DNA of 64,000 bases, taken from the NCBI GenBank assembly GCA_003193925.1, contig PSPG01000002.1:1-64000 (forward strand). Reading direction: 5' to 3'. This document shows, in pieces, positions 6,063-53,093 of this stretch. This DNA is from Candidatus Thalassarchaeum betae (GTDB lineage: Archaea; Thermoplasmatota; Poseidoniia; Poseidoniales; Thalassarchaeaceae). Every line of letters starts with the position of its first letter. Position 1 is the first letter of the stretch. A program made the position numbers and the translations under genes. Below the pieces are notes generated by a model. It had not been told where the DNA came from. It was given only the letters and a program-made list of their open reading frames with translations, and made no database searches.

Positions 6063-6253
6063 GGGTGTCACTAACGTTCATCAGGCTATATGAATGATAT
6101 AATCATGTCGCCAGATGCTCGTCACACCCCCTTTAGGGGTGGTTCCCAAATAATGCCTCCTGTTGGGCGTTTTTCCGGGTTCGTGGCCGATGAACAGGGG
6201 AGGTGCAGTGGAAATTATCGTTACGCGGGGTGCTTGACTTGTACACGCGCTGC

Positions 6254-9457: not shown

Positions 9458-9537
9458 GGCCTTAGGGCCATGAATTCCGCTTTGAACTTTGGCACGGCAC
9501 GATGGTGCATAAAATGCACCGCTACAGCACGACGGTT

Positions 9538-10389
9538 TCATTCGTAGAAGTAGAATCCCTGACCGCTCTTGCGCCCGAGTTTGCCCTCATAGACCATCTG
9601 AACCAGCAGAGGGGCGGGGGCGTACTTGTCGTCTGCCAGTCCCTCGTGCAGGACGTTCATGATGTGCAGCACCGTGTCCAGGCCGATAAAATCGGCCAGC
9701 GCGAGCGGCCCGATGGGGTGGTCCATCCCGAGTTTCATGATGCCGTCTATGACCTCTGCCTCTGCCACTCCCTCCTGCAACGTCAGGATGGCTTCGTTGA
9801 GCATCGGGCAGAGTATCCTGTTGCTGACGAAGCCCGGCGAGTCGTTGCACGACAGCGCCGTCTTGCCCATCCTCTCGACAGTCCCGACCACAGCGGCGTT
9901 GACCTCATCGGAGGTCTGGGCGCCGTTGATAATCTCGACCAGCCGCATTATCGGGACGGGATTCATGAAGTGCATCCCGATGACCCTGTCCGGCCTGCTC
10001 GTCGCACCGGCGATCGCATCGATGCTGATGCTCGATGTGTTACTGGCGAGGATGGCCTCGGGCTTGCAGATGCCGTCGAGCTCGGCGAAGGCCGAGAGCT
10101 TCAGCTCGGGGATCTCCGGGATCGCCTCGATGACGAGGTCGCAGTCTGACGCCGCCCCCTTGTCGGTGGATGTGCGCACGCGCGCGAGAGCCGAGTCGGC
10201 ATCCTCCCGGCTCATCCTCTCCTTGGCGACGAGCTTGCCCAGAGAGCGCTCTATGGCGTCCATCCCACGCTCTATGAATTCCTGCTCGATGTCGATCATC
10301 GTGACGTCGTACCCCGCGCATGCCGCGACCTGCGCTATGCCGTTGCCCATCTGACCCGCACCGAGCACGGCTATGCTGCGAATCTCCAC
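9538..10389 (-). CDS. hbd: 3-hydroxyacyl(butyryl)-CoA dehydrogenase
   Basis: GAGQMG Rossmann motif, [40 protein letters not shown]. Confidence 0.93.
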
Positions 10390-23800: not shown

Positions 23801-23918
23801 CCGAGGCCTCCTTCAGTGGCTTGAGCCTCTCGAAGAATCCCTCCCAGAAAGCCGCCTCGTCATCACGGTCCTCTCCATCTGCGATGGAGTACTTGTCCAC
23901 CGGCTCCGCATCAGGCAC
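20814..23918 (-). CDS. MMPL/RND-family membrane transporter
   Basis: Two-fold repeat of an extracellular loop plus TM bundle, with GLGVDYALH and GIGVDDSIH motifs. Start revised to GTG 23918 (uncertain). Confidence 0.85.
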   Translation of the reverse strand: MPDAEPVDKYSIADGEDRDDEAAFWEGFFERLKPLKEASDRAREGFTSSFVGEGLDTLAQLVDDASDAARGATRRTVELTYSSILRSPASIVILLLLLTAVVGRDAMEFEHQINGDVEIYLPDGADSTALLKQVREQWATDIFILYVQTDNAIADPSFRGVENITHVDILKQISWIEGDDQNRGIGGYQSGLDYNKGDRGDIDGVVWVLSPAQIIKEANSSSYRFNCAVEKHGLPTGPNEECILSSMNPYEGYSIPEGSGAQERVDRFVEDAEPLLSNFVRDTNGDGIWDTGVVVMGLKFDMSDTAITARPNPKGTTEENPEGILRDHKAFIIHAELLIYEESDPSDCQLCHRVYSTPTSTMDEFTSIEERKAITITGLTPVLHDVSDAIYLELVDRMLPISLILVALAMLILHRNPKVIIICGAPILMSLAITFGITVWADIMLTPMIISVGPILVGLGVDYALHLTNRIEENRIDLIEERLEMTWAAQRDGLQTEDVDPWDPHISLMATVRAVLTTGHAIFLSALTTIIGFSVLRWPSLVPIEPMRTVGTTLLLGISTTFVLSMLMVPALVQLLRYRKVQFKAFDAFWEKVGEVPIKATLVVILVATFFTAAGASILSEELGKGITGASDEVPPGLESYEALSEYSEVFEAGQTNMFIVDATGRGGQNGTAPIRDLPILDAIDYMQVQKIDLVANTTTISLVTVLRSIHVDVVVGGLEIYDQSLWEILHDECWDESTNPLRPDCWAYSVSSREDMVNIAFDTLSPEVRSMLMNVDQGTGETKTLVYVNQPYINLADAGVLRDAIDGYLTGPAGCGTAWTCQALGITQVFNSLLTGGLPVSIDINDGIHEAQSKTTVATMLILLLTMAILFRSPRLAFFTMVAVGVVVIWQPLLMRGGGVNVNVFTAMIGTIVFGIGVDDSIHIIDRIKDERETPAGIVKSVAKTGQTIFETTVTTCAGLSAGLFVAIPGLQNFFVLMMLLLILALLTSSILLPALIVAFHEFSSRITGSGSWLDYEESGTLSEEAVLDAVIE

Positions 23919-24137
23919 GGGGTGGGGCCTCCACGGGAGCCAAATGAAGCGTTCGCATTGGCTCCTCGTGGGAGGCGTGTTTGGAGCAGTTTCAGGATTT
24001 CTGGAACTGGCTCGCAGTCGCGACCGCCTGCTCCCCGTCGATGACTCAGCGCACAGGGTACGGTGATTGGGTTTGCGCCAGCCCCGCGCGCGACGGCAAC
24101 CCGATGCACTCAAGGCTGACGCTAGGGTCGCGCGGCC

Positions 24138-25079
24138 ATGGAACTGGTCACAGGCGGTGCCGGGTTCATCGGCTCCCACCTGGTGGATTCACTGGTAACT
24201 CAAGGGGAGCGCGTGCGCGTCCTCGACAACTTCAGCAGTGGTCGCGAGGAGTTCCTCTCCCAACACTCGGGCTCGGGTATGGTCGAGGTCGTCAGGGCCG
24301 ACCTGCTTGACCTAGAATCGGTGAATTCGGCTATGGACGGGGTCGAAACCGTCCATCACATGGCTGCCAACCCCGACATCCGGCTAGGGACCGAAGTCAC
24401 CGACACCGACCTCAGGCAGGGCACTATCGCCACCTACAACGTGCTCGAGTCGATGCGTCTCACGGGAGTGGGTAAAATCTCATTCTCGTCATCGTCAGCC
24501 GTGTACGGCGAGGCTGATCGGATGCCCACGCCCGAGACCTACGGCCCAATCAAGCCAATTTCCCTCTACGGAGCGTCCAAACTGGCCTCCGAGGCCCTCA
24601 TCACCGCATGGTGCGGCACCTTTGGCGCCAAGGCCTGGATTCACAGATTCGCCAACATCGTGGGCCCGAGGGGCACGCACGGAGTCATCTACGACTTCGT
24701 CCACAAGCTCAAGGCGGATCCGACCCGGCTTGAAGTCCTCGGCGACGGCCTCCAGGAGAAGTCTTACATGTCCGTCGAGGACTGTGTAAGCGCCATGCTC
24801 CACCTCGTCGACGGTGTCGATGACGAGGTGAACCTGTACAACCTCGGGACCGGCGACACCTGCTCGGTCCGCCGCATCGCCGAGATCGTGGTCGAGGAGA
24901 GTGGCCTCAAGGGAGTCTCCATCGAGTACACCGGGGGTGAGCGTGGCTGGGCCGGCGATGTGCCCAAGACCTCGCTAGACGTGGGGTGCCTGTTCTCCAC
25001 AGGTTTCGTGCCCGGAATGCAGTCTGAGGCAGCAATCAGGCAAACTGCGTGCGCGCTCATCGGCGAGATAGGCCTGTGA
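24138..25079 (+). CDS. NAD-dependent epimerase/dehydratase (GalE-like extended SDR)
   Basis: TGGAGFIGSH, SSSAVYG, YGASK, RFANIVGP. Confidence 0.92.
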   Translation: MELVTGGAGFIGSHLVDSLVTQGERVRVLDNFSSGREEFLSQHSGSGMVEVVRADLLDLESVNSAMDGVETVHHMAANPDIRLGTEVTDTDLRQGTIATYNVLESMRLTGVGKISFSSSSAVYGEADRMPTPETYGPIKPISLYGASKLASEALITAWCGTFGAKAWIHRFANIVGPRGTHGVIYDFVHKLKADPTRLEVLGDGLQEKSYMSVEDCVSAMLHLVDGVDDEVNLYNLGTGDTCSVRRIAEIVVEESGLKGVSIEYTGGERGWAGDVPKTSLDVGCLFSTGFVPGMQSEAAIRQTACALIGEIGL

Positions 25080-29530: not shown

Positions 29531-29641
29531 TTGACAGCCGCTCGACCGGCCCGTCCCTTTTGAGGGCTTTCCCATCTATGTTGGACCCGGCAGGGTCCAA
29601 GTGGAGCCTAAGTTATACAGGGAGTGGTTTTGGCCGCGGCA

Positions 29642-32242
29642 ATGGCGAATGGCGCCTCGTCGAGGGAGTCCCTTGCCCGGACCTTCGAGAGAATGGCTCT
29701 CCCGATAGTGGTTGTGAGCATCCTGATGACGGTTGCCATGGCTGATCAGCTCCTAAACGATTTCCCGGGATTCACGACCGATCTCGACTCGTTCGCCCCC
29801 GAGACTGAAACTGATGCAGCCGAGAAGAGGATGGGCGAGGTCATGGATGCCTCACCGCACATGATCTACATCCACGTCGAGCCTTACATCAAGTCTGCTG
29901 ACGGCGGCAATGAGTGCGACGAGATCGTATGTAACGTGTTGGAGTTCGGGGCCCTCCAGCAGCTCTCCGATGACTTGAGCAGGATCGAGAACTACTCCGC
30001 TGCAAATGGGAACTTCATCGTGGCGCACCTGAATGTCGCTGATATACTCGAGAGGGCGCTCGAGGAGAGGGATGAGCAAGGTCGCGCCCTAGCCGACTTC
30101 AACGACTGGGAGGAGTTTCTGGGTGCTGTCACGGACGGGGAGAAATGCACAGACGCGATCGGCAACGACCAGGCCATCGCCTCGGCCTCGTTCGCCGCAT
30201 CTGCGATGCTCCACACCGACCTCGACTACGAACCTGTGTGTGAGTGGTTGGACACCGGCGAGGGCGACCCCACCCCGAGCGCGTCCAGCACGATGTGGGC
30301 TATCGAGATCAGCGGTGAGATCAGCGACGATGAGCGTCAGGAGGAGTCATCCAGAATACGGGACCTGCTTACTGCGAAGCACCCTCTGGGCGACGACTCC
30401 GCCCTGAAGTACGGCGTCATCTCGGACGACCTGATCAGCCACGACATCAACGAGTCGACCTTGGACAACCTAGTCTGGCTGCTGCTCATCGCCGTCATGG
30501 TCGTGGTCTTGCTGCTGGCAGTGGCGTTCCGCTCCTTCATGATGGTCGCAGCCCCTCTGCTGGGGCTCTCGGCCGCTCTAGTCTGGACCTATGGTATCAT
30601 GACAGTCATCGGCGTGCGATTCTCGGTTCTCGAGGTCGCTGTGGCCCCGGTTGTATTGGGTCTGGGCATCGACTACTCGATTCACTTGCAACGTGGCTAT
30701 GAGGAGGCCAAGAGCCGGTACGCGAGTGCCGCGCGGGCTTGGGTCGAGTCAGTATCCGTTCTGCGTTTGGCTCTCTCGCTGGCTGTGGTCACCACGGTCT
30801 TCGCCTTCCTCGCTAACTCGTTCTCCGAACTCCCTCCGCTGCGTACCTTCGGATTCACTCTGGCCCTAGGCGTGATTTCGGCCTTCGTGGTAAGCACCGT
30901 CTCCGTCGGAGCGGTGCATGTATTGGTGGAGAAGACGGCTGGTGAGATGCAGCACCGCAGCCTGCAGATGGAGAGGATGGCCGACTTGGCCACTCGGTTC
31001 CAAAGGAGGAATACCGCGAGAGTCCTGCTGGTCGTCGCACTGATCACCATGGGCTCGGTGATAGTAGCGATCAGGGAGCTCGACACCAGTTTCGAGCTGA
31101 CTGACTTCCTCTCAGAGGATGGCGTAGAGATCATTGAAGTCAGGAACGACATGTACGATTCCTACGAAGCGGCGGCTTGGAAGTCGGTCATCATACTGAT
31201 CGAGCCGGCCCCGGGCAGGGATGCCCTGACAGGCGAGAAAGACCTGTTGAAGGGACTCGGGTTCTTCGATGACAGGATAGCCGGCATTCCAGAGGTGGTC
31301 AATCCGACGAACACCGATTCGCAGCGGCCGTCTTACGATGGGCTCCATCCGATCCTGCGAGACGCCGTCGAGAACGACCCATCGTTCGGCGAGTCCTACC
31401 ACTTCGGGATATTCGACGGCGAGTTTGGCGTCGCTGATGGGTTCGAGGAGGGTGACCTGATGGGAGCCGTCACGGCCTTGATGGCCAACGACTCGGCAGG
31501 AGACGGACTCAGAGGACTCACATGGGCTGAGAGAATCGGGATGCATGTCGCACTGACCGAGGACGGTCAGTCCCTACTGTATCTCAAGATGAGAGTGGAT
31601 GTGTTAGTCAGGACCAGTGTCGAGGCTCAAGAGGTAGCGGACGTGTTCCTGAAGCAGGCTCAATTGCTGGAGGAGGACGGTCTGGTAGGAGGAGAGGTTT
31701 ACGTCTCCGGCGATGTCATCGTTCTGAACAACGTGCTCTCGGGGCTGGTGGTATCCCAAGTTGAGTCGACGACGATCAGTCTGTTTGTATCCATGTTGGT
31801 GCTGATACTCCTAACCCGCAAACTGGGGCAGTCGCTGGTGGTCATCCTGCCGGTCGGCCTGGCAGGTGCTTGGGTGGTCGGGGCAATGGCCATGCTGGGA
31901 CTGAACTGGAACGTCCTGACAATCATGATCACCGCACTCACGATCGGCCTGGGCATCGACTACTCGATTCACGTATGGAGGCGTTTCGAGGCGAACCGCC
32001 TCTCTGGCATGGGGACCTGGCAGGCCATGCGCGACATGTACGCCACCACGGGGACCGCGCTGCTGCTGTCAGCTGGTACGACGATCTGCGGATTCCTTGT
32101 ACTGATGCTGTCCCCGATTCCGGTCATTCAGGACTTCGGCATCGTGAGCTCGATCTCGGTTCTGTTCTCGCTGATGATGGCGCTGCTAGTGCTCCCCGGC
32201 CTGCTGGCCGCCGAAGTCCGCTCAGTAAACGACTACAGCTGA
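29642..32242 (+). CDS. Second MMPL/RND-family membrane transporter
   Basis: Two GLGIDYSIH motifs and duplicated TM bundles with large extracellular loops. Confidence 0.88.
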   Translation: MANGASSRESLARTFERMALPIVVVSILMTVAMADQLLNDFPGFTTDLDSFAPETETDAAEKRMGEVMDASPHMIYIHVEPYIKSADGGNECDEIVCNVLEFGALQQLSDDLSRIENYSAANGNFIVAHLNVADILERALEERDEQGRALADFNDWEEFLGAVTDGEKCTDAIGNDQAIASASFAASAMLHTDLDYEPVCEWLDTGEGDPTPSASSTMWAIEISGEISDDERQEESSRIRDLLTAKHPLGDDSALKYGVISDDLISHDINESTLDNLVWLLLIAVMVVVLLLAVAFRSFMMVAAPLLGLSAALVWTYGIMTVIGVRFSVLEVAVAPVVLGLGIDYSIHLQRGYEEAKSRYASAARAWVESVSVLRLALSLAVVTTVFAFLANSFSELPPLRTFGFTLALGVISAFVVSTVSVGAVHVLVEKTAGEMQHRSLQMERMADLATRFQRRNTARVLLVVALITMGSVIVAIRELDTSFELTDFLSEDGVEIIEVRNDMYDSYEAAAWKSVIILIEPAPGRDALTGEKDLLKGLGFFDDRIAGIPEVVNPTNTDSQRPSYDGLHPILRDAVENDPSFGESYHFGIFDGEFGVADGFEEGDLMGAVTALMANDSAGDGLRGLTWAERIGMHVALTEDGQSLLYLKMRVDVLVRTSVEAQEVADVFLKQAQLLEEDGLVGGEVYVSGDVIVLNNVLSGLVVSQVESTTISLFVSMLVLILLTRKLGQSLVVILPVGLAGAWVVGAMAMLGLNWNVLTIMITALTIGLGIDYSIHVWRRFEANRLSGMGTWQAMRDMYATTGTALLLSAGTTICGFLVLMLSPIPVIQDFGIVSSISVLFSLMMALLVLPGLLAAEVRSVNDYS

Positions 32243-32855: not shown

Positions 32856-32971
32856 CAGCCCCTCCGGAGGGGTGACTGAGTCGAGGCGCTGTTTGATGGT
32901 TGCCTCTGTAATTACGCACGATATTGCATTCCATTCAAGAGAGGCGGCGCATTGCGCGGGCCGAGGCGAAG

Positions 32972-34183
32972 ATGGCGAGGGAATACATCGCGCGTGACCC
33001 ACGCACGGACAGACCGATCAGGAGGCAGCGATTGGATGGCCATGTTGACATCCGCGGGCTCCTCCCCAGTACCGGCCCGTGGCAGAGGATTCCGGTTCAC
33101 GAGATTCTTCCATTGGCCCGAGGAGAGTCGGATGGCTTGGAGTTGTCTAGGAGCGCCGGAGGGGGATTCGTTCGCAGGAGTGATGCGATCAAAGCACTTC
33201 ACCGGGTCTTTGAAAGCCAGGTCGATCTGGCCCATCAGACTCTGCTGGATGCCCTCGATGACGATGATTCCGAGATCAGGATAGCCTCTCTGGAGATTCT
33301 GCCGATCTTCGCGCTGAAGAAGCACGAAAATCTTCTGCACTGTCTCTCCGACCGTCTGCTCGAGGATGATCCACAGGTCATAGCGGCGGCTCGAGAGTGC
33401 TTCATCAGGGTCGCCCCGGTGTTCCCCTCGGGCTGTGAGAACATCCTTCGCAGGGAGTTGCGTGACACGAGGACGGATCATCGCGCCAATGCCTTCGAGA
33501 CCCTTCGTCGGACTGCCGAGAACTGGCCAGAGGCAGGGTGCCTTCACCTCGACGAGCTGATTCGCGAGGAGGACGTCGACCTCCGAAGGCGCGGCTCGCT
33601 CATTCTGAGGGCCATCGCCGCCAATGCAGGTGCCACTGGGTGGGACCTGATCGGATGGTCACTGGAGGACGAGGACGCCCAAGTGAGAAGGAACGCCTCC
33701 TATACCCTCACGACCCTTACCAGAACCGAGCCCAGAATAGCGACTATCTTCATCGAGTCCGCCATCATGGACGACGACGCGGGAGTGAGGAAGTCGGTCA
33801 TAAGAGCGCTGAAGAGGCTCGACATGCAAAATCCCCGGGTTACCAAGATGATTATCGATGGTGCCAGAAGCAGGGATTACACACTGCGCAAGGCGTGCAT
33901 CGACCAACTGTCGATCATGCTGAGCGGTGACACGCTGAGGGAGACGGCTGCCGAACTCCTGCGCCATGAGACCCGCCCCGACCTGTGCAAGAGGCTGACC
34001 TCGCTGGCGAAGGACGTGGAGATGGAGGGCTCCGAAGAGGAGAAGAACCGGTTCCTAGCCCCCCTGGACAAGGTGGAGCCATTGGTAGAGGAGTTCGATG
34101 CACCGCGCAGCGGTGAGGCCACTCCAGAGGGCGAACATGATAAACAGCGGTCAGGTCGGCCGCACAGCGAGGACTCAGCATGA
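32972..34183 (+). CDS. HEAT-repeat (alpha-solenoid) protein
   Basis: Periodic DxDxxVRxxA-type repeats: DDDSEIRIAS, EDVDLRRRG, DEDAQVRRNA, DDDAGVRKSV. Confidence 0.8.
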   Translation: MAREYIARDPRTDRPIRRQRLDGHVDIRGLLPSTGPWQRIPVHEILPLARGESDGLELSRSAGGGFVRRSDAIKALHRVFESQVDLAHQTLLDALDDDDSEIRIASLEILPIFALKKHENLLHCLSDRLLEDDPQVIAAARECFIRVAPVFPSGCENILRRELRDTRTDHRANAFETLRRTAENWPEAGCLHLDELIREEDVDLRRRGSLILRAIAANAGATGWDLIGWSLEDEDAQVRRNASYTLTTLTRTEPRIATIFIESAIMDDDAGVRKSVIRALKRLDMQNPRVTKMIIDGARSRDYTLRKACIDQLSIMLSGDTLRETAAELLRHETRPDLCKRLTSLAKDVEMEGSEEEKNRFLAPLDKVEPLVEEFDAPRSGEATPEGEHDKQRSGRPHSEDSA

Positions 34184-37012: not shown

Positions 37013-39391
37013 ATGAGGACTCGTTCAGGTGTGGCGATTATCCTCCTGTTCCTTGTCTCCATGGCACCGGTGGTGCCATTTGCCGCCGCTGACACCGTCA
37101 TCGGCGCCGAAGGGGTCGAACTCCTCGAAGCGGGAGATTTCTCGGACGCCGAGCAGTGGGAGGTGTCCGCCACCGCCGGATTCTCCAGCGAGCAGGCCGA
37201 GCATTCGGGGGGGATGGTCGCCGACGGTGAGCTGTCCTTCACCCACGACAGGCCGGACAACTTCGCGCAACTGACCTCCTGGGCCACATACAGCCCGACT
37301 TCGTCGAACGCCACCCTAGGCCAGCCGGACTCGTACTACACCTGGTCCAAAGGCCCGAACATCACTATGAACGGGTACGACTTCGCGGGACTGCACGGCA
37401 TGCAGATCGCGAACGTCTCCATGGTCCTGCACTTCTCCATCCCCGATGAGCTCTACCAGGACTCGGTGAGGGTCATCCTGCAGAATCACGGCTCCGACAA
37501 GCTGGTGGTGACCTTCGCGAGGACCTTCGGCCCGATTCACAGGATGTCCAATCCCCTCGTTCTGCCGCTGGAAGAAATTATTCAGATGGACTGGGGTTCT
37601 CTCGAGGGCACCCAGTTCACAGTCGACTACGTCTCTCAGGGGACGAGTGACGACTCCGAGATCAGAGTAGATGCGGTCGGGCTGCGGGTCAAGTACCACC
37701 AGCCCTGGTACTCCTTCGAGACCACCAAGGCCATTCACACCGTCACCGGGGTTGATTCGCCGGTGATTGACCACGATCCCTATGACGGGGAGATCGTGGG
37801 GCTGTCACAGGAGAACTGCGGGCTCACCCCCGACGGGCCCGGAATGGGGTACTGGACCTTCGACGTCGAGGTTCCCCCACTGCAGCAATTGGGGCGAATA
37901 CATGTCTATGGGACCGGGAATCACACAATCTGGGCTCTGCCTGACGGAGTCGACGGAGACTACAGCGAGAAGCAATCGGGGGAACTGCTAGATAACCCCG
38001 ATTCCACCCAGCAAATCCGCATCGACATCGAGGACGGATGCATCTCCCTAGCGAGAGTGGATGTCAACGACCCGCACCTCGTGGTCCATGGGGTCGTTTC
38101 AGGGGAGCTCGGAGGCCTAGCCGGCACGAGTTACATTCGATTCGCCATCGGCAGCGATTTAATCGCCAGCATACCGATGGAGGGCGGCGCCTTCGTTATT
38201 GATGTCCCTGTGGGTTACGCTCTGCCTGAACAGTGGGGGGAGATGGTCGCCGGGGTCGCTGCGAGGTTCCAATGGTCCTCGAACGGGACCGCCGAGACCA
38301 CCGTGGTGCACATCCACTCGATCTCCATCACTGGTGGCTACGATGTCGAGTGGGACCTCGACCCTGAGTGCATGCCGCTAGAGGACATGTCATTCGACGA
38401 GGATGACGCGGGTGTACACATCCCGATGGACGTCAGGTGCAGCGACGACATCACCGCACCTGAAGACCTAGCACTGAGCGCAGTCAGCGGAGACCCGACT
38501 GTCATCGAGGCGACCATCGTCGACCAGTATGTCAGGATCCAACCAGTCAGGGACGCTTGGGGCGAGACTACTGTCGAGGTCAAAGTCGAGGACGAACGCG
38601 GCAACATCTGGACGGGTGAGATGAGCATCACGGTGAACCCGATTGAGGACCCTCCGGTCCTCGAGGGGCTCCCCCTCACAGTTTACATCGAGTTGGGCGA
38701 GACGATGGTCGTCGACATCACCGTGAAAGATTCCGACACCCAGTCTCTAACCCTCTCGGCCAGCCGCTCCTGGGCTACTTTCGATGCCGCTGACGATCTG
38801 GTCCTGACTCCGGTTATGGACGGCACCCACATGGTCGAAATCAGTGTCAGCGACGGAACCAACCACATCTCCCAGGTGGTCGAGGTCATCGTGACGGCAA
38901 AACCCGACCTCTTGATCGATTCTATCGACGTGAGGCGGGACGGACTGACCGTTTCGGAGCTGGTACACGGGGATGTCATCGAGATCTACGCCTATGTCAG
39001 GAACGAGGGGCGAGGAGTAGCCGATGCCGTATACGTCAAGTGCACGGTCGGGGGAATCCTGGTCGGTGCTGTCATGGTCGATTCCATAGCACCTGGCGGA
39101 TTAGGCGTAGCAGTCTGCGATGCGCAGGTCTCAGGGCCCGACGATGCCTTGGCCATCGAGGTCATGGCTGACGGCACCGCATCGATAGACGAGACCTCCG
39201 AGAGCAACAACGTCCGCTCGATCACAATGATAGTGAACGAGAGGAAGACCGATTCAGGCAGTGGCCTGATGGACTCTATTGATCGGGGTCCCGCAATCGT
39301 CTTCCTCGCCATAGGGGTCAGCCTGATCGCCCTCACAGCGCTGTATTTCAGCCCCGGCAAGGTGCGCAAATCGTACGAACGCGAAAAGTAG
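37013..39391 (+). CDS. Secreted, C-terminally anchored protein with cadherin/Ig-like and CARDB-like domains
   Basis: Signal peptide; ITVNPIEDPP linker; KPDLLI...VRNEG...IDETSESNN CARDB signature; C-terminal TM. Confidence 0.8.
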   Translation: MRTRSGVAIILLFLVSMAPVVPFAAADTVIGAEGVELLEAGDFSDAEQWEVSATAGFSSEQAEHSGGMVADGELSFTHDRPDNFAQLTSWATYSPTSSNATLGQPDSYYTWSKGPNITMNGYDFAGLHGMQIANVSMVLHFSIPDELYQDSVRVILQNHGSDKLVVTFARTFGPIHRMSNPLVLPLEEIIQMDWGSLEGTQFTVDYVSQGTSDDSEIRVDAVGLRVKYHQPWYSFETTKAIHTVTGVDSPVIDHDPYDGEIVGLSQENCGLTPDGPGMGYWTFDVEVPPLQQLGRIHVYGTGNHTIWALPDGVDGDYSEKQSGELLDNPDSTQQIRIDIEDGCISLARVDVNDPHLVVHGVVSGELGGLAGTSYIRFAIGSDLIASIPMEGGAFVIDVPVGYALPEQWGEMVAGVAARFQWSSNGTAETTVVHIHSISITGGYDVEWDLDPECMPLEDMSFDEDDAGVHIPMDVRCSDDITAPEDLALSAVSGDPTVIEATIVDQYVRIQPVRDAWGETTVEVKVEDERGNIWTGEMSITVNPIEDPPVLEGLPLTVYIELGETMVVDITVKDSDTQSLTLSASRSWATFDAADDLVLTPVMDGTHMVEISVSDGTNHISQVVEVIVTAKPDLLIDSIDVRRDGLTVSELVHGDVIEIYAYVRNEGRGVADAVYVKCTVGGILVGAVMVDSIAPGGLGVAVCDAQVSGPDDALAIEVMADGTASIDETSESNNVRSITMIVNERKTDSGSGLMDSIDRGPAIVFLAIGVSLIALTALYFSPGKVRKSYEREK

Positions 39392-41132: not shown

Positions 41133-42062
41133 TCACCTCCATTCATCCCGGCACACTTCGCACCTCAGCCTGCCCTTTGAGGTCCTTGAGACCATGTTCG
41201 AGTCGCAGGACGGGCAAGTGGTTCCCGACTTGGGAGGCGCTGAATGCACGTTGCCGCCTCTCCTCCTCGCTGCTGCGGCGGCTTGGCCCCCCGTCTTGCG
41301 CGGTCCAGCCCTCCTGCGCTGGGCTCTGCGGACCCTCACGTCGTCGCTCGACTTGGCCTTCTCCTCCTCTAGCAGATACAGGAGAGGCTCGGGGATCGGG
41401 TCTCCGGCGACGACGAGCGGATGGCTCCGGTAGCGGAAGAGCTTGATGTGCCGGTCGATGATTCGTCCCAAAGGCGCGCTCATCGTGATGTAGGTGGCAA
41501 TCCAAGCGGGGAATATCCACATCACCCTGTCGTTGAACTCCCACATCGGCACCCAAGGCAGGCTGACGAAGGCCACTCTGAAGGTCTCCACCTCACTGGC
41601 CATCCAACTGAAGATTGCGATGATGAAGACCATCGTGAACATCATCGGCCTCATCATCGCTGACTGCATGGCCATCTGCTCGGGCATCAGTTCCATCTGC
41701 AGCTTCTGCATCTTGTCCGCCCGGGCTGTGTCACGGGCCATCTGGGCCTCTCTGAGTTGCTTACTGACCTGGCGTTGGCGGTGACTGAAATGAGCCTGTC
41801 TCAAGGGGTCCATGAAGAAGGACCGGATGATAGTGTTCACAACCATGATGCTGGAGCCGACGATGAACACCGTCGGAACGAAGTACAACGAGTGGAACGG
41901 GAGCAGGGGTATGAGGACGTAACCCGCCCCGTCGGCCAATGCTATCCGAAGGCTTGGGTTGAGCATCAGCACCACCATCATCACCAGGAGGAAGAGCATT
42001 GGAAGCATCATCGAGGACATGGCCTCGGCCTGCGAGTCGCTGCTGGTGCCCGCTGATGCCAT
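41133..42062 (-). CDS. DUF106 / EMC3-TMCO1 (Oxa1 superfamily) membrane protein with C-terminal basic region and zinc ribbon
   Basis: TM segments around a Met/Gln-rich coiled coil ending MRPMMFT; WIATY; position next to cmk; C-terminal CPSC...CEVC. Confidence 0.8.
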   Translation of the reverse strand: MASAGTSSDSQAEAMSSMMLPMLFLLVMMVVLMLNPSLRIALADGAGYVLIPLLPFHSLYFVPTVFIVGSSIMVVNTIIRSFFMDPLRQAHFSHRQRQVSKQLREAQMARDTARADKMQKLQMELMPEQMAMQSAMMRPMMFTMVFIIAIFSWMASEVETFRVAFVSLPWVPMWEFNDRVMWIFPAWIATYITMSAPLGRIIDRHIKLFRYRSHPLVVAGDPIPEPLLYLLEEEKAKSSDDVRVRRAQRRRAGPRKTGGQAAAAARRRGGNVHSAPPKSGTTCPSCDSNMVSRTSKGRLRCEVCRDEWR

Positions 42063-42131
42063 GTACCCTCGCTCCGCCAGAACAGGATGAACGCTTCGGT
42101 GGACGCCAAAGGCGTCCAATCGGTTCCGCAA

Positions 42132-44723
42132 TCAGAGGGAATAACTGCAGACGACGCATACCGATGCGCCTATTTCCGCCTCGGAACCGCATATTGGGCA
42201 GACCTCGCCCCCAGGCGCACCAGCCGCTTCCTCCTCCTCTGGCTCTTCTTCCTGCGGCTCTGGCTCCCCTTCCTGAGACTCTTCTTCCTGAGGCTCTTCT
42301 CCCTCCGGCTCTGGCTCCTCGGGTTCTGACTCTGGCTCTGGCTGTCTGGGAAGTTCGGGGACCCTCTCCGGGTCCACCCACTCTGGAAGGTTAGGCTCCT
42401 CGTCGACCTCTGCGCCGAAGGTGGCGCCGTGGAAGTCCTGAGCGTCAGAGACCTTGTACTCCGACTCGGGGTCCCCTTGGATCTCGTATGTCACCTCTAT
42501 CCTCTCTCCCCGCTCAATCCTGCCAATCTTCCACTCGGTATGGGTCCCCTCGGGGGCTGCCTCCTTCTTCATGCGCACATCACGCTCGCCGTCAATCGAA
42601 GAGCGCACCGTGGAGTCCTCGATCGAGAAGGTCCCGGGAACCACGTCATGTAGAGCGAGGTCGTCGAGGGCGCTGTCGGAGTTGTTCTCGAACATCAGCA
42701 GGACCTCGTACCTGCCGGCGTTGCCAGCTGGAAAGACCTCCTTTCCAGTGCTCACGTTGCGCCGGCGGTGGACGACTCGCATCTGAGGGGGTCTCTCTAC
42801 GACCCTGGTCGCCACAGGACCAAACTTCTCGGAACCGAAGTCGGCCCTGATGGGGGCTGCTAGGAGCTCGTTCGCCGGAGAGGGGTCTGGTGCATGCAGC
42901 GGATACCTGATCACCATGGTCTTGCCGGGCTGGAGGCCGAGTGGGGCAGAAGTGCCTACGGTGATTCTCAGTCCGTGGCCTTCGCTGTCTGGGGAGATCA
43001 TCCTCTCTTCCAGCTGAATCCCGTTGATCACCTCTATCAGGTACTGCTCCTCATTGAGGTCGGTACCCCCGATCTCGATGCTCACGTCGTCCTGCGAAGG
43101 GGGGTCGAAGATCCCCGGGACGTCATCCAGCAGACGCATGACGTTAATCGGGGCCGAGCCGTTGTTCTCAATCGATATCGTAGCCTCGATATCAGAAGGC
43201 ACGAACGACTTGATCCTAGATTTATCATACTGCTTGAGCAGTACTGCGTCCAGCACGGTCAGTTTCTGCTCCTTCAAGTCGATCGATCCCCTTGACTCGA
43301 CGGCCACACGAGGCAGGATGGAGGACCTGAACTCGTGGGTGAAACTGGGGCTGTCGGCCTCCACCCTCTTCTCCATGGAACTCCAGCTCCCCTCGGGAGG
43401 GACGTCCTGACGGAGGTCAGAGATGTCCAGTATCGGATTTTCTCTGCCGGACTGCCAGACAGTCACCCCCGACAGTGTAACCACGAAGGAGGATCTGTTC
43501 TCGAACACGGACTTGCAGTGCCAGATCCCGGGTCTGTCATCCTCGACCTTGTCGACTCTCATCATGTGTAGGGTGGAGCCGGAGACGCGGTCGAAGTCGG
43601 CTCTCGAGACCGTCGCCTCAGCAGTGTAATTCGCGGAAGCGACGCCGGCGGAAATCTTGTCGACCCCCCCGGTGGTGACTCTGGGCGAGAGGGCGAGCAC
43701 CCTGCTCTCACCGACGTTGAGCCTGCCGATCTCCCAGGAGATATATGAATCCCCGACGCTGTACTCAGGGCCGTCGGGAATGTGGAAGTTGTCCGGGAAG
43801 GTCCTGCTGACCTCGACCTCCAAGAGAGGGCCGGGCGAGATGTTCTCGACCTCGAGCTGCAACTCAATCTCCTGTTGCTCCTCGGAGAAGACCAGTGACA
43901 GACTATCCTCCTGGTCCCTCTCCGGGTTGGTGTCGATGGATTCCTTCAGGACCAGCATCCGAGGACCGCTGGCGGAGTATGGGATTACCGTGTCCTCGGT
44001 GGCCTCGAGCTCCCTCACGGATATCGAGCGCCCTCCGATGTCTGTGGCGCTAGTTGATGAGAGTAGTACCTCTATGTCCCATGCCCTGTGCTTCTTGCTT
44101 GCGTTTCGCAGTATCAGTTCGCCTTCTATGGTCTGCCGCCTGATCGAGCCGTCGGGATTCAGGGTGGAGGTCTCCACTTCGCTCAGGGTGGCGTGTAGCT
44201 TGTCGCCCGGGATCGCGTCCACCTCCCTGGCGGACCTCAGGTGGGGAGAGGAAGCCGGAGCCACTACCGCCTTGGATAGGGCGTCGGCAATGGGGGAGTC
44301 CTCTTCAGAGTCCAAGGAGTCCACGGAGGACTCGGGTTCAGCCCAGTCTATCTCGTCGGCCTCCTGGCTATCTCCCGCACCGCTCAGCGCGGCTAGCGAG
44401 TCCTGTAGAGAAGCAGGCTCCTCAGACTCCTCATCCGGGACATCCAAGCCGGGGGGAGGAGGTGGCGGTGAGTCGGGTCCGGATGGAGTGGGGGAGGGGG
44501 CGTCGAAGCCGGGAGGAGGAGAAGGGGCCTCCCCAGGCTCCTCATCAGGCTCACCCGAAATCTCCCTGTCCTCGAGTTCCATCAAGCCCGGTGGCGGAGG
44601 AGGTGGCGAGGGCGCTTGTTCGCCCTCCGAATCGTCATCCTCCTCTTCCTCGAAACCGGGTGGGGGGGGCGGAGGAGGAGGGAGGGGGAACCCTGAAGGA
44701 GGGGGAGGGGGCTCTTCTGACAT
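42132..44723 (-). CDS. Cytoplasmic poly-proline/acidic protein with beta-sandwich core (mu-homology-like or DUF11-like) and C-terminal zinc ribbon
   Basis: Start ATG 44723 after GGGGTG; no signal peptide or TM; poly-Pro tracts; repeated ExN...D..P...W.IG.L..GE modules; CPIC...CVVC end. The product call is tentative. Confidence 0.75.
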   Translation of the reverse strand: MSEEPPPPPSGFPLPPPPPPPPGFEEEEDDDSEGEQAPSPPPPPPGLMELEDREISGEPDEEPGEAPSPPPGFDAPSPTPSGPDSPPPPPPGLDVPDEESEEPASLQDSLAALSGAGDSQEADEIDWAEPESSVDSLDSEEDSPIADALSKAVVAPASSPHLRSAREVDAIPGDKLHATLSEVETSTLNPDGSIRRQTIEGELILRNASKKHRAWDIEVLLSSTSATDIGGRSISVRELEATEDTVIPYSASGPRMLVLKESIDTNPERDQEDSLSLVFSEEQQEIELQLEVENISPGPLLEVEVSRTFPDNFHIPDGPEYSVGDSYISWEIGRLNVGESRVLALSPRVTTGGVDKISAGVASANYTAEATVSRADFDRVSGSTLHMMRVDKVEDDRPGIWHCKSVFENRSSFVVTLSGVTVWQSGRENPILDISDLRQDVPPEGSWSSMEKRVEADSPSFTHEFRSSILPRVAVESRGSIDLKEQKLTVLDAVLLKQYDKSRIKSFVPSDIEATISIENNGSAPINVMRLLDDVPGIFDPPSQDDVSIEIGGTDLNEEQYLIEVINGIQLEERMISPDSEGHGLRITVGTSAPLGLQPGKTMVIRYPLHAPDPSPANELLAAPIRADFGSEKFGPVATRVVERPPQMRVVHRRRNVSTGKEVFPAGNAGRYEVLLMFENNSDSALDDLALHDVVPGTFSIEDSTVRSSIDGERDVRMKKEAAPEGTHTEWKIGRIERGERIEVTYEIQGDPESEYKVSDAQDFHGATFGAEVDEEPNLPEWVDPERVPELPRQPEPESEPEEPEPEGEEPQEEESQEGEPEPQEEEPEEEEAAGAPGGEVCPICGSEAEIGASVCVVCSYSL

Positions 44724-44847
44724 GGCGCTAACACCCCGATGGGTGGTCGCGGACGTGGCTTGGATTGGTATAACCATTACTTGTCGGACACTGAGCCGAT
44801 GGCAGGGCGTCACGAATGGTTGAAGTTCTCTCGCCCTTGGCGAGAGC

Positions 44848-45690
44848 GTGAGCAATCAGGACGGGACAGCGCCTCCAGTGCTGTTCGTCGTCGGTACCGC
44901 AGGTGCTGGAAAGAGTTCCTTGGTGACTGCCTTCCAACGGTGGGCGCGATTCCTCGAGGTCGATGTACTCGCGATCAACCTCGACCCCGGGGCCGAGAGG
45001 GTGCACTACGACGCGGAGTACGACGTCAGGGACCTCGTTTCGCTGTCTGACGTCATGGTCGAGTACGACCTAGGCCCTAACGGCGCTCAAATCCTGGCCG
45101 CTGACCTGGTGGCGGCACAGGCGACCGAAGTCTTCGACGAGATCGAGGGGCTGTCGTGCGATCTGCTGATTGTCGACACGCCGGGCCAGGTGGAACTGTT
45201 CGCCTTCAGAGAGGCCTCCAACCACCTCGTCAGCGTGATAGGCCAAGGCAGGGCCTGCCTAATCTTCCTGTTCGACCCGATGCTCTCACGGACTCCGAGC
45301 GGCTTCGTGGCGCAGATGCTCCTTTCGGCAATCGTGCACTTCAGGCTGGGGCTCCCTACAGCGAACTTCCTCTCCAAGTCGGACTTATTGGAGCCGGAGA
45401 CCCTCGAGAAGGTGATGGAGTGGGGCGACAACCTGGAGGCGCTGGAGGCCGCGTTGTACGAGGAATCGGCCCAGCAAGCCCTCGACAGCCAGTCCGGCAG
45501 CCAAAGGGCCGAGTTCGCCATAGGCCAGCTCAGGATGATGCAGCACGCGTCGATACAGCCTGGCTTGGTGCCCCTTTCCAGTGAGGAGGAGGAGGGACTT
45601 GCCGACGTGCTGACCTTCGCACAGTCAGTATTCGGCGGAATGGCTGATGCCAGAGACGGATTTGCAGGGGACATAGAGCATGAGAGGTAG
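44848..45690 (+). CDS. GPN-loop GTPase
   Basis: GTAGAGKS, NLDPG, LGPNGA, DTPGQVELF, SKSDLL. Confidence 0.93.
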   Translation: MSNQDGTAPPVLFVVGTAGAGKSSLVTAFQRWARFLEVDVLAINLDPGAERVHYDAEYDVRDLVSLSDVMVEYDLGPNGAQILAADLVAAQATEVFDEIEGLSCDLLIVDTPGQVELFAFREASNHLVSVIGQGRACLIFLFDPMLSRTPSGFVAQMLLSAIVHFRLGLPTANFLSKSDLLEPETLEKVMEWGDNLEALEAALYEESAQQALDSQSGSQRAEFAIGQLRMMQHASIQPGLVPLSSEEEEGLADVLTFAQSVFGGMADARDGFAGDIEHER

Positions 45691-49966: not shown

Positions 49967-52900
49967 TCAGTCGAAGTCGCTGCACAGCTCGCCCTGACTG
50001 GGAAAGCTGACTGCCGACTTGGGGTTGGTGTTCCACTTGTTCTCGCACTTGTTGAGATACCCGTCGCCGTCCGAGTCGATGTTGGCGTCGGCCGGGTCAA
50101 ACGGATCGAAGCCGAAGTAGTACTCCCATCCTGACCACATGCCGTCGTCGTCCTGGTCCTGGTGATACACCTCCGAGCCATCGAACCACTGATCGCCGTC
50201 TGTATCCGGGTCGACGGGATTCGTCCCGTTCTCGAACTCCTCGTAGTTGGTGAAGTTCTCGAGGTCGTCGTAGAACCTCCTGCCGTTGTCTGTGGTCGGG
50301 TCGATGTGGCACTCGGAGTTCTGCGGGTTGTCCCATCCGGGGCAGTAGCGATACAACAGGTGCGTCCGATTGAGCCCGTCGCCGTCGAAGTCCTCCTGGC
50401 CGTCGTCGATGCCATCGACGTCCGAGTCGAACATCTTCGGGTCCATCGGACCGCGGGCTCCGACGGCGCTCAGGGTGTTGTTGTCGACCAGCCCCAGGCT
50501 GAGTGCTATCTCCGAGTAGTAGACCTCCCAGCCGTCGGGAAGCTTGTCCCCGTCGGTGTCGTCGTCCACTGGGTTGGTGTCCCAGCGGTCAGGGGCCTCG
50601 AGAGAGTTCATGAGTGTGTCATTGTCGATGTCGAAGGCCGAGTCGGGAAGCGAGCCCCATGCCGGGTTGAGGGCCCATCGTCCGCTGGCGGGTACGGTGA
50701 AACCTGACAGGTTCATCTCGTGCAGGAAGTACTTCGGATCCATGTCGCCGTCGCCGTCTCGGTCCCCGGAGGTCGAGAAGCCCGCGAGGTAACTGCTCCA
50801 GACCCAGCCACCGGGCCCGAGTCCACACTCGAGCATCGAATCACAGCCCGGCGGTAGCCAGTCGGTGACGCTGATCCAGAGGCTGTGGCTCTTCGTGTTG
50901 TGCTGGACGGAGAAGACCTGCATCTCCCAGCCATCGGGCTGACCGTCGCCGTCAGTGTCGTTGTTCAGTGGGTTGGTGGCACCCTGCCAAGGCCGTGGGA
51001 TGTTGAGTACCTCGCTACCGTCGAACAGGCCGTCGTCGTCACTGTCGGGGTTGTTGGCGTGGGTGATGTACTGGTCGAGGCCGTCGATGACCTCCTCCCC
51101 GTCGGACAGGCCGTCGAGGTCGGTATCGTGCGAAGAGGCATTGGTGAAGTACACCGAACCGTTCCATACGAAGCCGTCAACGGCCTCGGTGAAGTCCTCG
51201 AGACCGTCACTGTCGGTGTCCCTGTCAGAGGCATTGGTGAAAGTTTCGTAGTACTCGACAGCGTCGGACAAGCCGTCCCTGTCGGTGTCGTAGGCACCCG
51301 GATCGCTCCTTACTAAGACATCCCTCACACCCTGATCGACGATGCGAATGGTCCAGCCGATCACCTCGATGCCGTCGATGAGTCCGTCTCCGTCGGTATC
51401 GGCGACCAGCGGGTCGGTCGAGCGGCCGTCGACGAAGCCATCGCCGTCCCGGTCCCTCGCATTGTACTCGTCGAGGTTGGTGAAGCGCTCGTGCTCCTCG
51501 ACGACTACGGCGAGGTCCTGTAGACGGCTCGTGACCTCCTGGCCGATCTCGACGTTGATGTGGTAGATCCAGCCGGCGATCAGGGTCTTGATCGGGATGT
51601 TGACGTACTGGCTCTCCTGGACAGTCCTGACCCAGAGGATGGTGCTGTTGACCTGCACGTAGTCGCCGATCTCGACCGAGATGGCATGGATGGTGGTCAC
51701 GCCAACGAGCCCTGTGTATCGCACGCCCCCGTCGCCGTCGGCGTCGTAACCGTCGAAGTCGGGGTCGTCGTCAGCGTTGCTGCCGTCGTTCGGATGGATT
51801 CCGCTGAGGTGCTCCCACCCGTCGGGCATGCCGTCACCGTCGGTGTCGAACTCCAGCGGATTGGTGAAGTTCTCCGGACCCCAGGTGTAGGCGACCTCGT
51901 ACTCCTCGACGTTGTTCAGCCCGTCCCCGTCGGGGTCGCCGTAGGCGTCGGTGGCGTTGGCGGGGTTAAGGAAGCGGTCGCCCGAGGAATCGAGGCTGTA
52001 GCAGTACTCGAAGCCGTCGGGCATGCCGTCGCCGTCGGTGTCCCAGTCGCCCGGACCGTTGAGGCGGCCGTCGTTGTCCATGTCCTGCTCGAACCAGGTC
52101 CGGTCGCCGTGGCCGCTCATGTACTCCGTGTACGGCGCTTGCAGGGTCAAGGTGCCGAAGACGGGGACGCCGCAGTGGACGCCCAGTTGGATCTGCCCGT
52201 AGGCGATCTCGTACCTGTCTGCAATGAGGTCGCCGTCGCTGTCCTCCTCGAGCGGGTTGGTGTCGTACCTCTCCTCGACGTAATTGCGCAGACTGTCGGG
52301 TTCGGGCTGCTCGAGGTCCAGCAGGGCATCGCACGAGTGGCCGAACTGGCTGCCCATCTCCTCCCACTCGCTCGAGCCGATGTCCTGCTCGATCTGCCCC
52401 TGGACCTCGGGAGTCAACAGGTAGCAGTCCCAGTTGCCGTCGAGTGGGTCGAGTAGGGTGATTGACCCCGAAGGGGTCTCGATAACGAAGGTGTACTCGG
52501 ACTCCCAGCGGTCATTCAGACCGTCGCCGTCGGTGTCCCTGAGATTGGGATTGGTGCCGAGGAGCATCTCCTCGGTGTTGGTCAGGCCGTCCCGGTCCGG
52601 GTCTCCGAAGGGCCCGTTGTCCGGATTGGGGAAGGTCTCGTTCTGCTCCCCAGTCTCCTCCTCGTTGTCGGGGGAGTTGTGGGATATCTCGCTGAGGTCG
52701 GGCTCGCCGTTGTCCAGGGGATCCAGCCCATTGGCTATCTCCCACCCGTCGTCGAGCCCGTCGCCATCGGTGTCGGCCTCCCTCCAGTCGGTTCCGTAGA
52801 GCGTCTGCTCCATCCTGTCCGGCAGTCCGTCGCCGTCGAAGTCCTCCCCGCCGACGTGGGTGTCGTCGCTGGATACGATGTCCCCCGCTGCTGGTTCGAA

Positions 52901-53011
52901 GCCGCCGGAAGTGGTGGTGGACAGGCCGGCGTCGATGATGGTGTAGAAGCCGGCCAGACACAGCGTCGCTGTGATTGCAAGCACCGCATACTGGTTGTGA
53001 TTCAGAGCCAT
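49967..53011 (-). CDS. N-terminally anchored surface protein with DxDxDG(M/L)PDGWE Ca-binding-type repeats and an inserted lipoyl/biotinyl-like domain
   Basis: N-terminal TM YAVLAITATLCLAGFYTII; many DTDGDGxxDGWE and DPDxDGLxNxEE repeats. Start ATG 53011. Confidence 0.82.
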   Translation of the reverse strand: MALNHNQYAVLAITATLCLAGFYTIIDAGLSTTTSGGFEPAAGDIVSSDDTHVGGEDFDGDGLPDRMEQTLYGTDWREADTDGDGLDDGWEIANGLDPLDNGEPDLSEISHNSPDNEEETGEQNETFPNPDNGPFGDPDRDGLTNTEEMLLGTNPNLRDTDGDGLNDRWESEYTFVIETPSGSITLLDPLDGNWDCYLLTPEVQGQIEQDIGSSEWEEMGSQFGHSCDALLDLEQPEPDSLRNYVEERYDTNPLEEDSDGDLIADRYEIAYGQIQLGVHCGVPVFGTLTLQAPYTEYMSGHGDRTWFEQDMDNDGRLNGPGDWDTDGDGMPDGFEYCYSLDSSGDRFLNPANATDAYGDPDGDGLNNVEEYEVAYTWGPENFTNPLEFDTDGDGMPDGWEHLSGIHPNDGSNADDDPDFDGYDADGDGGVRYTGLVGVTTIHAISVEIGDYVQVNSTILWVRTVQESQYVNIPIKTLIAGWIYHINVEIGQEVTSRLQDLAVVVEEHERFTNLDEYNARDRDGDGFVDGRSTDPLVADTDGDGLIDGIEVIGWTIRIVDQGVRDVLVRSDPGAYDTDRDGLSDAVEYYETFTNASDRDTDSDGLEDFTEAVDGFVWNGSVYFTNASSHDTDLDGLSDGEEVIDGLDQYITHANNPDSDDDGLFDGSEVLNIPRPWQGATNPLNNDTDGDGQPDGWEMQVFSVQHNTKSHSLWISVTDWLPPGCDSMLECGLGPGGWVWSSYLAGFSTSGDRDGDGDMDPKYFLHEMNLSGFTVPASGRWALNPAWGSLPDSAFDIDNDTLMNSLEAPDRWDTNPVDDDTDGDKLPDGWEVYYSEIALSLGLVDNNTLSAVGARGPMDPKMFDSDVDGIDDGQEDFDGDGLNRTHLLYRYCPGWDNPQNSECHIDPTTDNGRRFYDDLENFTNYEEFENGTNPVDPDTDGDQWFDGSEVYHQDQDDDGMWSGWEYYFGFDPFDPADANIDSDGDGYLNKCENKWNTNPKSAVSFPSQGELCSDFD

Positions 53012-53093
53012 GGAGGCACATCCGGCCCCAATGGGGCCGTCCGCTTGAATTTGGGTCCGGATATAATGTTTCACGGCAACCGAGCACGGGCAA

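Follow-up and report, generated by a model that had tools for sequence, protein, structure and literature searches.

A predicted mu homology domain with a DUF11-type subdomain in a protein family of Poseidoniales and Asgard archaea

The stretch of DNA analysed here (the window) comprises the first 64,000 nucleotides of contig PSPG01000002.1 of Candidatus Thalassarchaeum betae, a member of the Poseidoniales (Thermoplasmatota). Its reverse strand carries a stop-free open reading frame for a protein of 863 residues plus stop, P0001, which lies between the genes for an EMC3/TMCO1-like membrane insertase and a GPN-loop GTPase (Table 1). Residues 171–487 of P0001 probably form a mu homology domain (MHD), homologous to those of the adaptor protein (AP) mu subunits, delta-COP and the muniscins, which we infer to act as a motif-binding platform in the cytosol. 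In clathrin adaptors, COPI, TSET and the muniscins, cargo and motifs are read by MHDs, which have been counted as a eukaryotic signature. The structure predictions and comparisons described below support this assignment for the fold and, somewhat less certainly, for the homology. The first-pass annotation of the locus, made by eye from the sequence, had flagged positions 43584–44201 (residues 175–380) as a candidate MHD, and the four strings it quoted all occur in P0001 in the order it gave.

Table 1. Features of the P0001 gene and of the adjoining genes (window positions; domain assignments are predictions).
Feature	Residues	Position	Strand	Basis and remarks
P0001, whole coding sequence	863 aa	42132–44723	-	start at ATG
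N-terminal Pro-rich, acidic low-complexity region	1–169	44217–44723	-	sequence; four PPPG[FL] motifs
Predicted MHD as structural unit	171 to ~487	43263–44213	-	VIA alignments
MHD subdomain A, N-terminal part	171–281	43881–44213	-	six long strands, AF2 model
MHD subdomain B (D2), a DUF11 Ig domain	282–375	43599–43880	-	Pfam DUF11
MHD subdomain A, C-terminal part	376–487	43263–43598	-	return strand 376–383 and later strands
Ig-like domain D4	491–652	42768–43253	-	DUF11-type, pilin/cohesin-like; hhalign, VIA-align
Ig-like domain D5	653–781	42381–42767	-	DUF11-type; hhalign; weak sequence likeness to adaptin ear domains
Acidic Glu/Pro-rich linker	790–838	42210–42356	-	sequence
C-terminal CxxC...CxxC zinc ribbon	842–863	42135–42200	-	sequence
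EMC3/TMCO1-like membrane insertase		41133–42131	-	Pfam EMC3_TMCO1, E 2.3e-17; directly downstream
GPN-loop GTPase		44848–45690	+	Pfam ATP_bind_1, E 4.8e-52; divergently transcribed upstream

A longer open frame, starting from a TTG at 44855 (42132..44855), is also present. The ATG was taken as the start because the longer frame would overlap the divergent GPN gene; near homologues share the start of P0001, MSE(E/D)PPPP. As the first-pass annotation had said, the domain is preceded by a disordered, Pro-rich and acidic tail, and it is followed by two further immunoglobulin (Ig)-like domains (D4 and D5), an acidic linker and a zinc ribbon. Neither a transmembrane segment nor a signal peptide is indicated in P0001, since its highest 19-residue Kyte-Doolittle mean is just 1.49 and is located in the zinc ribbon. 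An N-terminal hydrophobic segment is found in only one of 69 family members, so by this simple hydropathy measure the whole family is cytoplasmic. The cytoplasmic localization proposed earlier is thus borne out.

These features bear on the idea that P0001 is a surface or S-layer-type adhesin rather than a cytoplasmic protein. Folds of the DUF11 and pilin/cohesin-like kinds usually occur in extracellular proteins, and several neighboring genes of the window encode large secreted proteins. Against this stand the hydropathy of P0001 and its relatives, the C-terminal zinc ribbon, the long acidic and Pro-rich tails, and the position of a conserved single-copy gene amid the housekeeping genes cbf5, cmk and the GPN GTPase. 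We regard an adhesin as highly improbable, the least credible of the readings considered here.

All structural evidence presented here is predicted. AlphaFold2 (AF2) models were obtained for residues 170–790 (621 residues; predicted local distance difference test score, pLDDT, 95.3; predicted template modelling score, pTM, 0.81) and for residues 170–509 (340 residues; pLDDT 96.1, pTM 0.87). The models were compared with 48,161 representative PDB chains using VIA-align, independently of Foldseek. For the 340-residue model, the ten best of these chains are all MHDs, with Z-scores of 15.7–12.2 and 203–222 residues aligned. The best is that of mu2 (7ohz_B, Z 15.7), which superposes with a root mean square deviation (rmsd) of 2.9 Å over 214 residues, model residues 3–318 lying on chain residues 169–437. 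The others are two further mu2 chains (9fiw_M, Z 15.3; 2xa7_M, Z 14.1), mu4 (Z 14.9), mu3A (Z 14.7), bovine delta-COP (Z 13.5), SGIP1 (Z 13.4), mu1 (Z 12.9), yeast delta-COP (Z 12.2) and Syp1 (Z 12.2). The structure comparison suggested by the first-pass annotation therefore places mu2, delta-COP and the muniscins SGIP1 and Syp1 all among the ten best. Below the MHDs, the list continues with a lone Ig domain (Z 10.7 over 118 residues), and later Ig domains reach Z 10.7 at most, over about 110–130 residues; the AP-5 mu domain scores Z 8.9 over 212 residues.

Whole MHDs again rank first by Z when the 621-residue model is used. In the same analysis, D4 (model residues 321–483) matches the Sgo0707 N2 domain, SpaD, BcpA and RrgB at Z 13.6–14.1 over 134–143 residues, its matches to pilin and cohesin-type Ig domains as a whole lying at Z 11–14. 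Foldseek searches with the 340-residue model gave MHDs (mu2, mu3A, mu4 and delta-COP) in 37 of the 47 rows listed, with target-normalised template modelling (TM) scores of 0.56–0.72 for entries of isolated domains; the remaining ten rows are integrin alpha legs with target-normalised scores of ~0.1. With the 621-residue model, all Foldseek matches were to generic Ig arrays, led by integrin legs and adhesin Ig arrays, at TM scores of 0.04–0.33.

The subdomain A sandwich of the predicted domain would consist of the N-terminal strands together with strands that return to it after an inserted Ig-like, DUF11-type subdomain B. The N-terminal strands (E7–95 in the AF2 model) match the start of solved MHDs in the VIA-align superpositions. 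Residues 376–487 contain the return strand, later strands and insertions relative to eukaryotic MHDs, the VIA alignments reaching model residue 316–318. The strand at ~363–380 that the first-pass annotation had taken for the closing strand of the domain is, in the models, the last strand of subdomain B followed by the first of the strands leading back to subdomain A. The flagged segment agrees with the Pfam Adap_comp_sub (PF00928) matches of relatives, which map through the family alignment to residues 173–387 of P0001; the domain itself extends about 110 residues further, to residue 487.

The joining of the two halves of subdomain A was also modelled with residues 170–279 and 373–509 given as two chains with their own alignments. 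The pair reached an ipSAE of 0.73 (0.72, 0.75 and 0.73 in the individual runs), while the best of three controls reached 0.01; the runs share at least 65% of their contacts, with partner pLDDT of at least 75. A mark of 0.73 is attained by 58 of 80 solved complexes and by 2 of 110 mismatched pairs, counts that are only rough here given the custom alignments and the fact that both chains are parts of one protein. In the predicted arrangement, the strand that immediately follows the DUF11 domain (residues 377–383) pairs with residues 214–221, and residues 469–475 pair with the first strand, 174–180.

Mean-field direct coupling analysis (mfDCA) of 296 sequences (effective number ~204, including 172 further members taken from genomes) was used solely as a cross-check of this interface, and draws on alignments that overlap those of the complex prediction. 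Couplings are enriched in the predicted interface (9 of 27 versus 2.9 expected, p 0.0015; 43 of 212 versus 22.8 expected, p 3e-5). By itself mfDCA is too noisy, with an intradomain enrichment of 1.2–2-fold and values of 1.0–1.2-fold for D1–D3 versus 0.6–0.8-fold for the D1–D5 control. The complex model supports, but does not show, contact between residues 170–279 and 373–509. The A-B-A chain order is kept, as the Foldseek alignments are sequential, and the models thus place the two-sandwich A-B-A order of MHDs in residues 171–487.

As its own alternative, the first-pass annotation had offered an array of separate Ig/DUF11 domains whose resemblance to MHDs is limited to subdomain B. Part of this description stands: subdomain B is a DUF11 domain, and two more DUF11-type Ig domains follow. 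DUF11 is also the only Pfam match of P0001 itself, a feature search of the ESM Atlas gave DUF11 clusters only, and Foldseek ranked integrin legs and adhesin Ig arrays first for the longer model. These Ig-array matches have the low TM scores given above, whereas both models place whole MHDs first by Z. Rather than forming independent, sequential domains, residues 170–279 and 373–509 are predicted to lie in common sheets, D2 being looped out between the two segments, an interleaved topology supported by the ipSAE for the returning strands and by the ten best VIA-align chains. The models contradict a simple Ig string, which we consider very unlikely.

At the sequence level, the single Pfam match of P0001 covers residues 283–380 (DUF11, PF01345; 34.3 bits versus a cut-off of 24.6). 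A scan of NCBIfam and a single-sequence PDB search with P0001 gave nothing useful. The relatives are more informative. When 69 family members were scanned singly against Pfam, matches at E<=1 were obtained to DUF11 in 66, Adap_comp_sub in 32 (best E 1.9e-10), Alpha_adaptinC2 in 10, AP3B1_C in 9 and muHD (PF10291) in 2. A rescan of 64 of them at E<=0.01 found Adap_comp_sub in 29, with 7 exceeding the curated cut-off of 31.6 bits. Four of the matches cover profile positions 6–236 of 259, and hence both subdomains. Another 28 Asgard relatives all carry precomputed labels for both PF00928 and PF01345. The membership of P0001 in the MHDs is, by sequence, transitive only, since relatives rise above the cut-off and P0001 has no match of its own; the profile check proposed by the first-pass annotation therefore succeeds for the family and fails for the protein it concerned. 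Neither of the two outcomes that the annotation had named as refuting its reading, sequential independent domains in a model and a lack of significant profile matches to MHD families, was obtained.

Profile searches against PDB sequences point in the same direction. MHD chains make up 30 of the 36 hits of the family profile; a second profile gave 26 MHD and 6 gamma-ear chains among 32 hits, AP-2 mu being the best (E 9.2e-5), and a third, built from residues 170–405 of 127 species, gave 27 MHD and 6 gamma-ear chains among 33. With the latter profile, delta-COP (E 2.4e-3) aligns collinearly, profile positions 4–194 against chain residues 7–202. Subdomain B corresponds to the region that matches positions ~120–240 of Adap_comp_sub in relatives and mu2 residues 302–413 in the PDB profile searches. 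The likeness to MHDs is specific to the first DUF11 domain of this family, because PF00928 was matched in just one of 301 Thermoplasmatota genomes, within a family member, though many of these genomes encode DUF11 proteins. The flagged region of P0001 is under strong selection: N207 and W330 are invariant in the family alignment, and E182, G201, Y249 and E261 are kept in at least 90% of the members.

The two following Ig-like domains are related to subdomain B, with hhalign probabilities of 95% for D2 versus D4, 97.6% for D2 versus D5 and 97.0% for D4 versus D5. The Alpha_adaptinC2 (PF02883) matches fall in D5, the best at 26.7 bits, under the cut-off of 27.6, and the family profile finds gamma-adaptin ear chains of the PDB with this region at E 0.011–0.47.

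Several observations weigh against the assignment of an MHD. P0001 has no match to Adap_comp_sub or muHD at E<=10 for the whole protein or at E<=1 for the core, and five representatives of the nearest type have no match to either model at E<=0.01. The N-terminal half of subdomain A alone (123 sequences) gave no significant match in the PDB or Pfam; its profile finds delta-COP at E 0.52, tied with topoisomerase II at 0.49, and PF00928 is matched in 2 of the 123 sequences at E<=10. What is significant at the sequence level therefore comes from subdomain B, the DUF11-like part, and from the strand that follows it; this subdomain also resembles gamma-adaptin ears. The C-terminal half of subdomain A is some 70 residues longer than in eukaryotic MHDs, with boundaries as in the mu2 literature. 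Finally, the working context of eukaryotic MHDs is missing, as neither the sigma/mu longin domain (PF01217), Adaptin_N (PF01602) nor Arf (PF00025) has a match at E<=0.01 in the 91.8%-complete genome to which the window belongs; the PF01217 search is weak, as control genomes were silent as well.

The same observations could be explained by convergence, with a DUF11 Ig domain inserted independently into another sandwich and neither ancestry nor mode of working shared with MHDs. Such an origin would fit the silence of the N-terminal half of subdomain A, the ordinary DUF11 nature of subdomain B, which is homologous to both downstream Ig domains and resembles gamma-ear domains, and the far greater length of the C-terminal part of subdomain A. 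It is harder to reconcile with relatives that exceed the curated Pfam cut-off, some of them over both subdomains, with the collinear alignment to delta-COP, and with the silence of other DUF11 proteins in the 301 Thermoplasmatota genomes for PF00928. Chance would also hardly produce Z-scores of 12–16 for all MHD classes together with a drop to the single Ig domains ranked below them. We consider convergence unlikely, and an MHD of common descent, whose predicted model superposes on whole solved MHDs and whose relatives match Adap_comp_sub, the better explanation.

Comparison with known systems places P0001 near, and outside, each of the eukaryotic classes. The C-terminal domains of the AP-1 to AP-4 mu subunits (PF00928) superpose at Z 12.9–15.7 with rmsd values of 2.7–3.4 Å over 203–222 residues (mu2 168–437), have the same A-B-A chain order and are matched by profile in relatives of P0001. 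By contrast, P0001 lacks the N-terminal longin domain by Pfam, no partner subunits were matched in its genome, and it adds two Ig domains, a zinc ribbon, a Pro-rich tail and the extra residues in the C-terminal half of subdomain A. As the longin domain and partner subunits were looked for and not found, P0001 is not a mu subunit of an AP complex or of COPI. The MHD of delta-COP gives, besides its Z-scores, the sole collinear sequence alignment across both subdomains; delta-COP is, however, a subunit of the COPI F-subcomplex with a longin domain, a context that P0001 does not share. The muniscin domains (Syp1, FCHo and SGIP1; PF10291) are similar both in structure and in layout, since muniscins also place the MHD after a long Pro-rich disordered region. 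P0001 differs from them in having no F-BAR domain and in that its MHD is not C-terminal, and the muHD model is matched in only the two relatives mentioned above. With the Ig arrays of DUF11, CARDB and pilin type, P0001 shares the DUF11-type subdomain B, D4 and D5, and the likeness of D4 to pilin and cohesin domains; unlike these arrays it is cytoplasmic, and in the predicted MHD its first DUF11 domain interrupts another sandwich.

The family is large. At least 561 relatives were found at E<=1e-3 in one database (8000 candidates scored), and an exhaustive search of 50%-identity representatives gave 331 at the same threshold. Close relatives (65–99% identity) belong to the Poseidoniales, Thalassarchaeaceae or Thermoplasmatota where named, and all are annotated as 'hypothetical'. 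Many distant relatives of 580–740 residues align over the entire 600-residue core at 20–30% identity. The named members of these distant clusters are from Asgard archaea: Njordarchaeia, Helarchaeota and Lokiarchaeota/Harpocratesius, the last annotated as 'COG1470 family protein'. The Asgard proteins that match the Pfam model are members of the same family as P0001.

A survey of 301 sampled Thermoplasmatota and 201 sampled Asgard genomes was carried out along the lines proposed in the first-pass annotation. Of the two Poseidoniales families, one has full-length matches in 19 of 21 genomes and the other in 40 of 42, and the gene is single-copy in these 59 of 63 Poseidoniales genomes. A third Thermoplasmatota family has full-length matches in 23 of 24 genomes, and there are a few elsewhere; none were detected in a sister family of the same class (8 genomes) or in another family (36 genomes). 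A match at E<=1e-30 is present in 168 of the 201 Asgard genomes, which often have between two and five paralogues. Just 10 of these 201 genomes contain a PF00928 hit that reaches the cut-off, and at least 45 of the 52 places hit by PF00928 in them lie inside the listed family matches.

Eme et al. (2023; PMC10307638) call Asgard adaptor domains ('mu C-terminal domain') sparsely distributed, and a 2026 paper (PMC12962969) repeats that adaptor homologues are patchy in Asgard archaea. In contrast to the sparse distribution described in 2023, the family defined here is present in most of the sampled Asgard genomes and also occurs outside the Asgard archaea. The reported patchiness reflects the sensitivity of the model, given the difference between the genomes with PF00928 above cut-off and those with the family. 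Our literature search gave no link of MHDs with archaea beyond the Asgard reports, nor any of Poseidoniales with clathrin adaptors.

A FastTree phylogeny was calculated for 190 genome-derived members, excluding rows with >25% gaps as well as two members (L004 and L018). With midpoint rooting, all 54 Thermoplasmatota sequences fall in one clade (support 0.62), inside which the Poseidoniales are monophyletic (support 1.0). One member encoded in a 5.5-Mb Thermoplasmatota assembly (G162:C90, L002/L004; 82% complete, 980 contigs) is 25% identical to P0001; it scores like an Asgard-type protein against the family profile (E 9.5e-196), yet falls within the Thermoplasmatota clade.

Members of the family vary in their termini. 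Some consist of the core only (~590 residues), whereas others have an N-terminal extension of 80–157 residues, and the C-terminus may carry zinc ribbons or helical tails. Compared to the Asgard members, those of the Poseidoniales branch have the Pro-rich tail and the zinc ribbon in addition, and they escape the Pfam model. Poseidoniales-type relatives have Pro-rich N-termini (Pro fraction 0.21–0.23), which core-only members lack; the latter are Asgard proteins wherever a name is recorded. The CxxC..CxxC tail is found in 6 of 68 members scanned, and the last 22–25 residues of P0001 are kept in 9 of 12 related Poseidoniales loci. A HEAT-repeat N-terminal extension is found in one of the 64 members rescanned (P0236) and in two of the 69 scanned.

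The N-terminal tails of P0001 and its relatives P0095, P0125 and P0129 contain repeats of PPxPPG followed by F, L or M, which we take to resemble the proline-rich ligands of GYF-type domains. Searches of the genome of the window for profilin and GYF domains, as possible polyproline readers, gave no match, a search that is uninformative because control genomes were equally silent. A paralogous Asgard subfamily of ~720 residues (e.g. G475:C16:12760-14175 and G496:C37:57124-58539) matches the family profile only from position ~148, and so the first ~240 residues of these proteins must differ from MHD subdomain A. Another member, P0330, has many tetratricopeptide-type repeats fused to the PF00928 and DUF11 part, combining a solenoid and an MHD in a single chain.

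The gene is embedded in a partly conserved neighborhood. The start of the insertase gene abuts the stop codon of the P0001 gene, and the genes for cytidylate kinase (cmk) and Cbf5 come after it. Among 12 related Poseidoniales loci, surveyed with flanks of 1.5 kb only, the insertase adjoins the family gene in 8 and the GPN GTPase in 10. The neighborhood in a single Asgard locus, that of the Lokiarchaeon Harpocratesius, was uninformative. The genome of the window is 1.48 Mb in size, with one copy of the family gene. Only six short contigs from four marine metatranscriptome runs (four studies), with matches of 33–258 nucleotides, correspond to the gene at 90–100% identity; they are a weak hint of transcription, as DNA carry-over is possible.

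The MHD of P0001 would stand without a longin or F-BAR domain, with the Pro-rich disordered tail before it and the two DUF11/pilin-like Ig domains and zinc ribbon after it. In eukaryotic MHDs, the sheets of subdomain A provide the binding surface for short linear motifs. By analogy, P0001 may be a cytosolic platform for short linear motifs of partner proteins or of membrane-protein tails, which could bind along the equivalent sheets, with the Pro-rich tail and the zinc ribbon as further docking elements. The cargo-adaptor function that the first-pass annotation had in mind is, likewise, something we infer from this analogy. In the Poseidoniales, the protein could perhaps work by the membrane with the co-encoded EMC3-like insertase, a link suggested by gene order and complementary charge only. 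The cytoplasmic tail of the insertase (DUF106-type) is long and basic and terminates in a CxxC...CxxC zinc ribbon of its own, and the tail of P0001 is acidic and also carries a zinc ribbon.

Since a complete fold is predicted with high confidence in a protein of marine Group II archaea, the MHD fold appears to extend beyond eukaryotes and the archaea most closely related to them. What is new is the confidently predicted full MHD fold, a Thermoplasmatota branch missed by Pfam, the architecture of that branch, and the recognition that subdomain B is a DUF11 domain. In Asgard genomes, the hits to PF00928 come from a single large family with a confidently predicted complete MHD fold, and they should not be read as evidence of AP complexes. 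The monophyletic branch conserved as a single-copy gene in the Poseidoniales, which are among the most abundant planktonic archaea, and present in another Thermoplasmatota family offers a testable prokaryotic model for the role of MHDs before vesicle coats. That subdomain B is still recognisable as a DUF11 domain suggests how the MHD fold arose. It is conceivable, though on balance we doubt it, that the family represents the prokaryotic ancestor of the eukaryotic MHD, which would have originated by insertion of a DUF11 domain into a sandwich before the split of Asgard archaea and eukaryotes, and would have served as a stand-alone motif adaptor at the membrane, coupled to the insertase in the Poseidoniales. 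If so, the recognition of cargo or tails by MHDs would predate coats, longin domains and AP complexes.

Other genes of the window are of interest in their own right. A 419-residue HEAT-repeat protein is encoded at 32924–34183 (+; HEAT_2, E 2.1e-11); HEAT repeats are also fused to the N-terminus of certain MHD-family proteins from Asgard archaea. Very large, likely secreted or surface proteins are clustered at 10421–16507 (-), 1152–6071 (-), 6254–9541 (-), 49967–53074 (-) and 37013–39391 (+). They are a 2028-residue subtilase with a PPC domain, a product of 1639 residues without Pfam match, two proteins with TSP3 repeats, and a CARDB protein that has a membrane anchor at its C-terminus. Two MMPL/RND-type transporters are encoded at 20814–24179 (-) and 29624–32242 (+), the second of which gives matches to the Patched and sterol-sensing domain models as well.

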